27,620 nt of DNA from a virus. The DNA is taken from the IMG/VR virus record IMGVR_UViG_3300046484_000120, one strand, 5' to 3'. Below, piece by piece: positions 10,189 through 11,934 of the stretch (the stretch's first letter is position 1; each line of letters begins with the position of its first letter). The notes under the pieces were generated by a model. It saw only the letters and a program-made list of their open reading frames with translations, was not told the DNA's origin and searched no databases. The position numbers were made by a program, and so were the translations under genes.

Positions 10189-10320
10189 ATGGAACAAGAA
10201 CCAGAAGAGCCGGTCCACGAACCTCCACCAAAAGAGCACCCAGATATCGAGCTTGATGGTGGTGGCAAACTTACTTGGTGCGAAATATGTGAATCATATT
10301 GGCAATGCGGGTGTGGGTAA
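10189..10320 (+). CDS. possible small Cys-rich ORF (43 aa)
   Basis: Hand-found ORF MEQEPEEPVHEPPPKEHPDIELDGGGKLTWCEICESYWQCGCG. Its TAA stop overlaps the ATG of the NAD kinase gene (TAATG). No clear RBS. Confidence 0.2.
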   Translation: MEQEPEEPVHEPPPKEHPDIELDGGGKLTWCEICESYWQCGCG

Positions 10321-11273
10321 TGCCAAAAAAGATAATTGTAGTTACCAAGAAAACATCTTATTCAAAATACATCCAAGACCAAGATGATGTCGGTTCAAAG
10401 GAGTTATTGCTAAGTGCAAATCCAGCTGTTGCGTTTTGGAAATCATCTCACAACAGTCATATGAAGACTCTTGATATTGTTGTGTCGGAGATTCAAAAAC
10501 AGAATTTTGTCTGCCACGTAATTGATTCTAAATCATTTGTTGCCGAGCCAGATGATGTTGAAATGGTTGTTACTGTTGGAGGAGATGGGACATTACTATC
10601 AGCTTCTCACAACGTAAATAGTGCACTGCCAATTCTTGCAGTCAACTCCGATCCATCAACTAGTGTTGGGTTCTTCTGCTATACAACATCAAATACTTTT
10701 CAAAATCATTTATCATTAGCATTAGATGGTAAATGTCCCAATACAATTCTAACAAGAATGAGTGTTAGAAAGAATAATAAGATAGTTGCGAATAGAATAT
10801 TGAATGACGTATTGTTCTGTCATACAAATCCAGCGGCAACATCTAACTACATCATTCAATTAATGAGTCGCCGCTCCCTAACTCCAGCGGCTGGAATGTC
10901 TGTTGGATCGCGCGTTTCTCCGATGTCGCTGCAGGAAACTCAAAGATCAAGCGGAATATGGGTTGGACCTGCAGCGGGTAGTACGGCGGCTAGGCGTTCT
11001 GCCGGGCTTTCGCCGATGGATCTTGAATCTAAAGACTTGCAATTGGGGGTCAGGGAGTTGTACTATAAGCCATCCTCGAAGCCAGGCACACGATTTATGA
11101 TGGCTGCCCCAGGGCAATTCATCAAAGTAATTAGCAAGATGGATAGTTCTGCTATGTATCTTGATGGAGATTACAGTGTAATTCCTGTTGGTCTTGGAGA
11201 TGAAATAAACTTCGAGAAATCCGATGACTCTCTGCAACTCTTAGGAAAACCAAATGTATTTTGTGGTAAATAG
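10320..11273 (+). CDS. nadK: NAD(+) kinase
   Basis: N-terminus MPKKIIVVTKK; GGDGTLL motif (VVTVGGDGTLLSASH); C-terminal conserved GxxVSTPTGSTAYSxSAGG-like segment (IWVGPAAGSTAARRSAG). Track ORF starts at 10299; the downstream ATG at 10320 is preferred. Confidence 0.7.
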   Translation: MPKKIIVVTKKTSYSKYIQDQDDVGSKELLLSANPAVAFWKSSHNSHMKTLDIVVSEIQKQNFVCHVIDSKSFVAEPDDVEMVVTVGGDGTLLSASHNVNSALPILAVNSDPSTSVGFFCYTTSNTFQNHLSLALDGKCPNTILTRMSVRKNNKIVANRILNDVLFCHTNPAATSNYIIQLMSRRSLTPAAGMSVGSRVSPMSLQETQRSSGIWVGPAAGSTAARRSAGLSPMDLESKDLQLGVRELYYKPSSKPGTRFMMAAPGQFIKVISKMDSSAMYLDGDYSVIPVGLGDEINFEKSDDSLQLLGKPNVFCGK

Positions 11274-11457
11274 ATCTTTTTCTGATATGTCAGACGCAAT
11301 AAAGGCCTGTAGTTCCGGATCTATTAGTGACATGATTACTGATAAATATGGCACCATTTTGATGAAGCACGAAGAGGTGCCAATTGAAGATATCTACGGA
11401 ATGATGATTGCTAAGCAGCTTCTTACTCGTTCACACTTATTGATGATAGAGGGTTAA
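11254..11457 (+). CDS. hypothetical protein (67 aa)
   Basis: Track ORF between nadK and the SLOG gene. Confidence 0.4.
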   Translation: MYFVVNRSFSDMSDAIKACSSGSISDMITDKYGTILMKHEEVPIEDIYGMMIAKQLLTRSHLLMIEG

Positions 11458-11934
11458 ATGATTCTTGGAATAACTGGGCACAGACCCAGTGTCTTAGGCT
11501 GTGGTTACGATATACCAAATCCAACTTATGACCGTATCTGTCAACAGATAAAAGGTGAATTCATCGAGCTAAAACCAGAGAAGATAATTTCTGGTATGGC
11601 CCTTGGGGTAGATCAGTGGGCCGTGAGTATTGCAATGGAACTTGGAATACCTTTCATTGCAGCTGTGCCTTTCAAGGGACAAGACTCACGGTGGCCAGTT
11701 AAGAGTAAAAAGATCTACGAGGATATGTTGGGCTCGGCAGATCGAATAGTCATCATTGGAGAACTTACCTCAAATAACTTTGCCGAACTAATGTTCTTGC
11801 GCAATAGATGGATTGTTGACAACTCATCAGAACTGTTAGCGGTATGGAATGGAGATCGTAAGGGCGGTACATTCTCTGCTATCAATTATGCTGAGAAGAA
11901 ATCAAATTACCATATTCGCGTCATAAAACCATGA
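11458..11934 (+). CDS. YpsA-like SLOG-family protein (DUF1273)
   Basis: ILGITGHRP...LG; GMALGVDQWAVSIAMELGIPFIAAVPF; LLAVWNGDRKGG. These parallel the Bacillus YpsA pattern (ITGYKPxELGIF ... GxxLGVExWAAEAA ... LLLLYDxEKEG). Confidence 0.6.
   Translation: MILGITGHRPSVLGCGYDIPNPTYDRICQQIKGEFIELKPEKIISGMALGVDQWAVSIAMELGIPFIAAVPFKGQDSRWPVKSKKIYEDMLGSADRIVIIGELTSNNFAELMFLRNRWIVDNSSELLAVWNGDRKGGTFSAINYAEKKSNYHIRVIKP

Follow-up and report, generated by a model that had tools for sequence, protein, structure and literature searches.

How does a virus come to carry a NAD kinase, and has that kinase anything to do with the SLOG-superfamily protein that is encoded almost next to it? The question is raised by a 27,620-nt stretch of viral DNA (IMG/VR record IMGVR_UViG_3300046484_000120; the whole of this stretch is referred to here as the window). 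An earlier note, made from the sequence alone, had picked out the two genes, separated by one small open reading frame (ORF), as a candidate module for NAD-centred anti-defence or metabolic takeover. The naming of the kinase, of the SLOG protein and of the single 67-aa ORF between them (positions in Table 1) was correct. A conserved functional NADK-YpsA module, on the other hand, is not supported, and the reading that is argued for below, at a probability of roughly 55%, is that two independent accessory genes, one for an auxiliary kinase supplying NADP(H) and one for a SLOG protein, have come to be packed together by chance in one phage lineage.

The N-terminal domain of the kinase matches Pfam NAD_kinase (PF01513) with 32.9 bits at a gathering score of 25.5; no Pfam match is listed for the C-terminal domain. 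Among solved structures, the single sequence is closest to human mitochondrial NADK2 (E 1.4e-7). The same enzyme (7r4j) is the best match, with 69 bits, of a profile built from 20 homologues, and bacterial NADKs align with that profile at positions 77-292, which takes in both domains. The AlphaFold2 (AF2) model (mean predicted local distance difference score, pLDDT, 82.9; predicted template-modelling score, pTM, 0.81) has the two-domain NADK fold, with a Rossmann-like N domain and a beta-sandwich C domain, and the top 50 Foldseek matches to it in the PDB are all NAD kinases, the best being NADK2 (7r4l; E 8.5e-20, template-modelling score, TM, 0.71). The GGDGTLL motif lies at residues 87-93; G87-G88-D89-G90-T91 is invariant in the 20 homologues and present in 10/10 further phage homologues, and D89 aligns with the GGDG aspartate of human NADK2. 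K10, T12, L161-N162, E206, S211-G212, G220-S221-T222 and S227-A228-G229 are likewise invariant in the 20 homologues, and these include the substrate motifs of the C domain, L161-N162 in an LNDVL segment and G220-S221-T222 in a PAAGSTAARRSAG segment. K10 aligns with the lysine of the VVVVAKTTRY segment in human NADK2, which we take to be K76 of that enzyme. NADK2 activity is reported to require K76, which contacts the substrate diphosphate, and the catalytic D161 (PMC9245612).

Judged by sequence, the phage protein is a divergent branch of NADK2 type and not a canonical NadK equivalog. Human NADK2 (C5orf33; 7r4j, 7n29) is its best match in sequence and structure, and the two share the N-terminal KxT segment, the GGDG loop, LN(D/E) and the E-x-Q-(K/R)-S-S-G ... 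G-(S/T) signature at only ~17% identity. The phage kinase lacks the animal-specific dimerisation insert (EMKA) of NADK2 (PMC9245612), and has instead its own short variable insert at residues ~183-205, and then the coupled 67-aa ORF. (The insert, at 10866..10940, is rich in Ser, Pro and Ala, ranges from 0 to ~50 aa among relatives and is modelled with very low confidence. It is clade-specific, being absent from the bacterial and the more distant phage homologues.) Plant NADK3 falls into the same eukaryotic 'mito' clade as NADK2 (PMC6675116). The reaction most likely to be catalysed by the phage enzyme is the ATP-dependent phosphorylation of the 2'-OH of NAD(H) to yield NADP(H). That such a gene is unusual in a phage, as the earlier note had it, is borne out by tblastn, which finds the kinase in 0/50,697 deposited phage records, and PHROGs offers no match.

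The 67-aa ORF finds no match in Pfam, PHROG, NCBIfam or PADLOC. Homologues of it directly follow NADK in five other places (L001/L009, L003/L004, L010, L185 and L186, in the numbering used here for related loci), and a word-indexed search reached only 5 close database relatives, all within the window's phage clade. It is a clade-specific companion of the kinase, which it always follows in that clade and to which it appears to be translationally coupled. The ratio of nonsynonymous to synonymous divergence (dN/dS) in comparison with L185 is ~0.10 for the kinase, 0.12 for the 67-aa ORF and 0.09 for YpsA (rough values, dS being >1). On the strength of these ratios of ~0.1, all three are real genes under purifying selection.

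The SLOG protein scores 58.9 bits with Pfam YpsA (PF06908/DUF1273; threshold 27.7), so that the profile match that the earlier note made its assignment depend on is there, and it matches B. subtilis YpsA (PDB 2nx2) by sequence (E 8e-8). The best Foldseek match of its AF2 model (pLDDT 95.3) is 2nx2 again (E 2.8e-12, TM 0.84), followed by DprA/ShosA. PHROGs yields only 'GTP-binding domain' or unknown families. Invariant in 32 homologues are the G7-H8-R9-P10 loop, G46, A48, G50-x-D52, P65, Q75, W79-P80, R115, W118 and G137-T138. The G50-V51-D52 segment aligns with LGVE of 2nx2 and has the GxD/E signature, which (as G53/E55) matters in B. subtilis YpsA by mutagenesis (PMC6459960). B. subtilis YpsA and YoqJ of phage SPbeta thus share fold and pocket signature with the window's protein at 24% identity, although the latter has no gpsB neighbour; it belongs to a phage-wide subgroup of 155-165-aa proteins named YoqJ-like. 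YpsA is found by tblastn in 282 deposited phage records. Its pocket (GHRP loop, GxD, GGT) is strictly conserved, and what the protein binds or processes is most likely a nucleotide of the ADP-ribose type.

The link to Thoeris ThsA that had been drawn for this protein holds at the level of the SLOG superfamily but not as a specific likeness. The ThsA SLOG domain (7uxs) stands at Foldseek rank 18 with TM 0.49 and 12% identity (LOG is at rank 33), PADLOC gives no ThsA match, the 158-aa protein is standalone with neither a SIR2 nor a transmembrane effector fused to it, and no TIR family, which would provide the partner, is seen among the window ORFs scanned with Pfam.

A different case can be made for the SLOG protein as having no role in NAD metabolism at all, being instead a minimal DprA/ShosA-like protein that either mimics the DprA-like antitoxins of systems with phosphoribosyltransferase (PRTase) toxins (Shosta, PsyrTA) or binds single-stranded DNA in replication or recombination. 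Pfam DprA (PF02481) does score above threshold, at 43.5 bits, PADLOC reports weak matches to ShosA (E 1e-7) and PsyrA (E 4e-4), and DprA/ShosA structures in the PDB reach TM ~0.67. In several deposited phages the homologue is annotated as a DprA-like single-stranded-DNA-binding protein or adjoins primase/helicase genes, and a PRTase-paired YpsA branch has been described (PMC6459960). However, YpsA is the better match in both score and TM, only the Rossmannoid core is matched, 158 aa compared with ~300 and with the flanking domains missing, and there is no PRTase among the scanned neighbours. The YpsA-type GxD pocket is invariant, and the neighbours and fusion partners of the relatives are NADAR, PARP and DUF4326: PARP and NADAR lie near YpsA in L022 and L023, and YpsA is fused to DUF4326 in Myxococcus phage Mx1 (L024). 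The DprA/ShosA-like assignment is accordingly judged to be decidedly doubtful.

Whether the two genes belong together is a question of gene neighbourhood. Only the window's clade keeps NADK, small ORF and YpsA in that order, and in it NADK and YpsA are adjacent or nearly so (window, L001/L009, L003, L010, L110, L185 and L186). Relatives within that clade have 0-3 unrelated genes between NADK and YpsA, L001/L009 having three, and L003 and L010 having an AAA ATPase and one or two small genes. The synteny persists down to 49-51% NADK identity. The flanking genes (for a 119-aa protein, PTH2 and a 165-aa protein) are equally syntenic, and the NADK-YpsA order is therefore an aspect of the general collinearity of related genomes. 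The two genes also differ in their histories, since identity to the window's genes in L001 is 77% for the kinase and 45% for YpsA (in L185 the figures are 79% and 77%). The kinase sits within a backbone locus to which the PTH2 gene belongs: L002 and L021 have PTH2 and YpsA at the same locus without the kinase, and L022, L023 and L024 have a YpsA (41-56% identity) with no kinase nearby. No clear YpsA lies within 10 kb of NADK at nine phage loci that are more distant (29-37% identity); L017 alone gives a 22-bit match, which Pfam does not confirm. YpsA is beside the kinase in none of 80 genomic bacterial loci and in one of 80 metagenomic loci (mostly of bacterial type), and that one is the phage contig L110.

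The neighbourhood of the cellular homologues is of another kind. The nearest of them, 39-45% identical over the full length, are nearly all from Polyangia (Myxococcota), the closest genomic ones being chromosomal genes of Polyangiaceae (metagenome-assembled genomes), Sorangium (complete genomes) and Chondromyces. In Polyangia a 225-aa NUDIX gene lies directly upstream, with its 3' end abutting or overlapping the kinase start; NUDIX immediately precedes the kinase at 37/80 genome loci and at ~42/80 metagenome loci. The motifs of this NUDIX-NADK operon's kinase are those of the phage copy, but the latter has no adjoining NUDIX. (A generic MutT-like NUDIX gene ~12 kb from the kinase, outside the window in the same genome, was considered as the operon-type partner and ruled out: it scores 11 bits on the operon-NUDIX profile.) In a rough neighbour-joining tree the window's phage clade adjoins the bacterial clade, and the other phage kinases form two further clades. 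The Polyangia loci have a GC content of 64-72% and the phage one of ~42%. That gap of ~25 points makes any transfer of the kinase an old one and the host inference a weak one. A Myxococcota host, suggested by the nearest NADK homologues and by Mx1 as the best deposited-phage match to the window's YpsA, is thus a weak lead, drawn from sequence. The Mx1 region (L024, 49845..62303) resembles that of the window, with tRNA genes, a VWA protein, a peptidyl-tRNA hydrolase, a calcineurin-like phosphoesterase and a TROVE-domain protein; the resemblance hints at distant relationship or a shared host group.

NAD- and ADP-ribose-related genes turn up near other phage NADKs without forming any fixed arrangement. 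Within the window's clade, L010 (9393..14210) has a dephospho-CoA kinase gene (CoaE) overlapping the NADK start and a NADAR gene overlapping the YpsA end, each pair being translationally coupled. Further afield, L011 has a NUDIX gene of the operon type 4.5 kb downstream of NADK (216 bits with the operon-NUDIX profile; also Pfam NUDIX), L012 has one NUDIX gene 58 nt downstream and another 1.4 kb upstream, and L013 and L019 have NADAR at 9.3 and 3.4 kb, respectively. L015 (5042..6959) has NrtR, a NUDIX and winged-helix NAD regulator, beside ThyX, an enzyme that uses NAD(P)H, 3-4 kb upstream of NADK. No NAD/ADP-ribose gene is detected within 10 kb of NADK in L016, L018 and L020. All-against-all clustering of the neighbours in 13 phage NADK loci finds no conserved neighbour outside the window's clade, apart from asparaginyl-tRNA synthetase-like and asparagine-synthase genes in L013, L017 and L019, which have no evident link to NAD. 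The NAD theme proposed for the locus is thus not supported as a NADK-YpsA unit and survives loosely, in the presence of NUDIX, NrtR or NADAR genes within 10 kb of several unrelated huge-phage NADKs.

If two independent accessory genes is the right description, the kinase would maintain NADP(H) while infection proceeds, for phage processes that consume NADPH, among them nucleotide synthesis and redox protection, and the SLOG protein would act on its nucleotide separately. Several observations weigh against that description. The supply of NADP(H) presumes phage enzymes that consume NADPH, and none is seen in the window. All NCBIfam NadK equivalog models score far below their cut-offs (at best 42 bits for a cut-off of 493), and because of these low scores, and because only the N-terminal Pfam domain passes, the substrate specificity of the kinase could differ from that of canonical NadK. 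In the window, L110, L185 and L186, NADK, small ORF and YpsA follow each other closely, their stop and start codons overlapping or directly adjoining, which is compatible with co-expression as far as the sequence goes. NAD/ADP-ribose genes lie within 10 kb of NADK in 5/9 of the distant phage loci, a raw count that comes with no background rate, and adjacent NAD-related genes in a genome of ~400 kb together with those five loci may be more than chance. Finally, a Myxococcota host and a recent transfer of the kinase are both uncertain.

The low equivalog scores, and identities of 13-20% to characterised NADKs, would also suit a protein of kinase fold that acts on something other than NAD+ (strictly on NADH, or on nicotinic acid adenine dinucleotide, ADP-ribose or another adenosine-containing dinucleotide) and that makes no bulk contribution to NADP supply. 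The variable, disordered insert and the company of dephospho-CoA kinase in L010 and of NUDIX elsewhere could be taken in the same sense. Against this, all of the NADK motifs that contact NAD and ATP are invariant, and NADK2, the nearest relative of known structure, is a genuine NAD kinase. We know of no member of the NADK fold family with an acceptor other than NAD(H), the lipid kinases excepted, and lipid kinases are not among the top 50 structural matches. A substrate other than NAD+ is accordingly regarded as improbable.

The packing of the genes bears on a joint role for the kinase, the 67-aa protein and YpsA in NAD-centred counter-defence. The kinase would 2'-phosphorylate NAD+, or a signal or product derived from it, and so make it unusable by, or invisible to, TIR or SIR2 systems of the host, and YpsA would bind or cleave signals of the ADP-ribose type. 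The 1''-2' glycocyclic linkage of ADP-ribose signals uses the adenosine 2'-OH, the very group that NAD kinases phosphorylate, which counts in favour of such a role, as do the abutting codons, the synteny down to about half identity, the NADAR gene at the YpsA end in L010 and the five distant loci with NAD/ADP-ribose genes. An anti-signalling role has, moreover, been predicted for viral SLOG domains (PMC9503650). Other evidence points the opposite way, however: the arrangement is confined to one clade, with unrelated genes interposed and with discordant divergence, each of the two genes is found without the other (YpsA widely so), and in cells the kinase is partnered by NUDIX. PADLOC gives no specific match for either protein, nor is there a ThsA-like one, and by consuming NAD+ the kinase would deepen NAD+ depletion instead of easing it. 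A joint counter-defence unit is for these reasons unlikely, although it deserves to be kept in mind. A narrower version, in which the kinase with its 67-aa partner is itself the counter-defence enzyme, placing a 2'-phosphate on NAD+ or on the signal (3'cADPR, ADP-ribose; cADPR being cyclic ADP-ribose), and YpsA captures or cleaves the resulting nucleotide, is a long shot. Were it true, phosphorylation would block either the chemistry or the recognition step of TIR/SLOG or SIR2 defence, and that would amount to a new principle of anti-defence, the inactivation of a signal or substrate by dinucleotide phosphorylation.

Two independent accessory genes therefore remains the preferred description, and it can be set beside what is known of phage genes that act on NAD. 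SLOG domains, mostly of the YpsA clade, occur in 31% of jumbo phages, with viral fusions to Macro, NADAR and DUF4326, and have been proposed to sense or degrade immune signals of the cADPR type (Iyer et al. 2022; PMC9503650). In its SLOG half, the idea of the earlier note had thus already appeared in print as a prediction, viral YpsA-clade SLOG proteins being expected to act on immune signals derived from ADP-ribose, and it is the kinase half that appears to be new. The window's YpsA is likewise a standalone YpsA-clade SLOG protein of a large phage, but no Macro, NADAR or DUF4326 is found among the window ORFs scanned, by contrast with the viral SLOG-Macro-NADAR-Nudix-DUF4326 network of that survey (PMC9503650). 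The same survey of viral NAD and ADP-ribose genes makes no mention of a NAD kinase (PMC9503650), neither NAD kinase nor NADP figures in the jumbo-phage NAD+ paper (PMC11662467) or the NARP3 paper (PMC13464706), and full-text literature searches for a phage NAD kinase brought up nothing relevant. A phage NAD kinase appears, therefore, to be unreported so far. The NARP1, NARP2 and NARP3 pathways likewise consist of phage-encoded enzymes that work on the NAD pool in conflicts over NAD, but they rebuild NAD+ (through Adps and Namat, Nampt and Nmnat, and NadR and PnuC, respectively), whereas NAD kinase consumes it; no enzyme family of NARP1, NARP2 or NARP3 was found among the ~40 window ORFs scanned with Pfam. 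With NARP1-3 and the Macro/NADAR/SLOG/Nudix networks, phage genes that act on the NAD pool have come to occupy a central place in phage-host conflict. A divergent NADK2-type kinase that is present, under purifying selection, in at least three huge-phage clades, often near NAD/ADP-ribose genes, would add a NADP(H) branch to the cofactor steps that phages have taken over. The conserved NUDIX-NADK operon of Polyangia is also relevant to where the eukaryotic mitochondrial NADK clade came from, a matter not yet settled (PMC6675116).

Table 1. Features at the kinase locus of the window (positions in the 27,620-nt stretch)
Feature	Position	Strand	Remarks
PTH2-type peptidyl-tRNA hydrolase	9735..10076	+	In-frame TAG at codons 3 and 33
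Amber-suppressor tRNA, anticodon CTA, class II, long variable arm	10094..10184	+	ARAGORN; Rfam tRNA 53.4 bits
43-aa Cys-rich ORF	10190..10320	+	Directly upstream of kinase; stop/start overlap TAATG
NADK2-type NAD kinase, 317 aa	10320..11273	+	Pfam PF01513, fold; ends with TAG
Conserved ORF, 67 aa	11254..11457	+	20-nt overlap with 3' end of kinase gene
YpsA/YoqJ-clade SLOG protein, 158 aa, standalone	11458..11934	+	Pfam PF06908, fold; ATG abuts TAA of 67-aa ORF
81-aa ORF	11931..12176	+	ATGA overlap with YpsA stop; no family match

The plus strand at 10190..12176 consists of five closely packed ORFs (Table 1). The first and last of them are also shared with relatives: the C-terminal part of the 43-aa ORF is kept upstream of NADK in L001/L009, and the 81-aa ORF, for which Pfam, PHROG, NCBIfam and PADLOC have no match, has a homologue after YpsA in L001/L009 and an 80-aa gene in the same place in L186. 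In L185, an IS605 OrfB/TnpB gene (Cas12f-like; 7555..8499, minus strand) lies upstream of the kinase, in the part of the locus occupied in the window by the 119-aa gene, PTH2 and the suppressor tRNA. The promoter and terminator scan of 9000..14000 yields nothing beyond the expectation from shuffled sequence, and sets no operon boundaries.

The source element is probably a huge phage, of at least 392 kb, because proteins identical to the NADK, the 67-aa ORF product and YpsA also occur on a 391,957-bp contig; structural genes are not seen in the 27.6 kb of the window. The relatives lie on contigs of 131-461 kb that IMG/VR lists as viral, and ARAGORN finds 13 tRNA genes in the window, all of which agrees with the mobile-element setting that had been assumed for it. 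The kinase region does not stand out from the rest of the window in GC content (0.41-0.44). A nucleotide search with 9000..16500 among deposited phages gives a single 68-bp match at chance level and no close genome. The window also contains many short ORFs without a family, a sub-threshold HNH-like match and matches to PD-(D/E)XK nucleases.

The PTH2 gene of Table 1 opens with ATG-ACG-TAG (Met-Thr-amber), an opening that is conserved in nucleotide sequence in four phages with differing flanks and that is ATG-ATT-TAG in a fifth (the sites are 9735..10184 in the window, ~2237 in L003, ~4764 in L010, ~3362 in L002 and ~9517 in L021). The TAG at codon 33 of the window's gene corresponds to E, Q or L in homologues. 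Directly after PTH2 comes a CTA suppressor tRNA, of 91 nt and class II in the window and of 75 nt in L002; the arrangement has the look of a translation-rescue enzyme whose expression depends on suppression. TAG still terminates 4/33 long ORFs, the kinase included; if it were read through, the kinase would gain three residues in addition to the read-through codon, ending at the TGA at 11283..11285, and the gene models of YpsA and the 67-aa ORF would be unchanged. A second suppressor-dependent gene may exist at 1874..2212 on the minus strand, where a 112-codon frame with one in-frame TAG fits into a 358-nt gap separating two minus-strand genes, leaving 9-nt spacers on both sides; L185 has no homologue of it at the same position.

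The remaining 12 tRNA genes (three for Ala, one for Arg, one for Met, three for Thr and four for Gly) alternate at 17176..22564 on the plus strand with small ORFs, a gene of HNH-like type and one for a HD protein. The HD protein, at 20630..21505, had been cited together with a ppGpp hydrolase at 15906..16397 as a sign of wider investment in nucleotide second-messenger metabolism. The 15906..16397 product does have a HD hydrolase domain of the RelA/SpoT type. The 20630..21505 product, however, resembles the C-terminal HD region of the actinobacterial CCA-adding enzyme (TIGR02692, 96 bits, below cut-off), the HD half of a tRNA-repair protein, which fits a tRNA-rich region better than second-messenger metabolism; what this suggests is a tRNA supply-and-repair region.

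At 5022..7067 (plus strand), the window encodes a 681-aa protein that matches the eukaryotic Major Vault Protein (MVP), with 97 bits for Pfam MVP_shoulder, 38 bits for Vault_3 and E 1e-20 for MVP in the PDB over residues ~319-623. The GC content of this region is 0.50-0.52, compared with ~0.42 elsewhere, and the gene looks like a recent insertion, since it is absent at the same position in L185. VWA-domain genes are found at 1193..1864 (minus strand) and 23866..24951 (plus strand). Finally, the 574-aa product of 13933..15657 (plus strand) combines a hydrophobic segment in its N-terminal part with a glycosyltransferase-51 domain (131 bits) in its C-terminal part, a transglycosylase of the penicillin-binding-protein type; such a domain in a phage is a peptidoglycan-polymerising one and not a lytic one.

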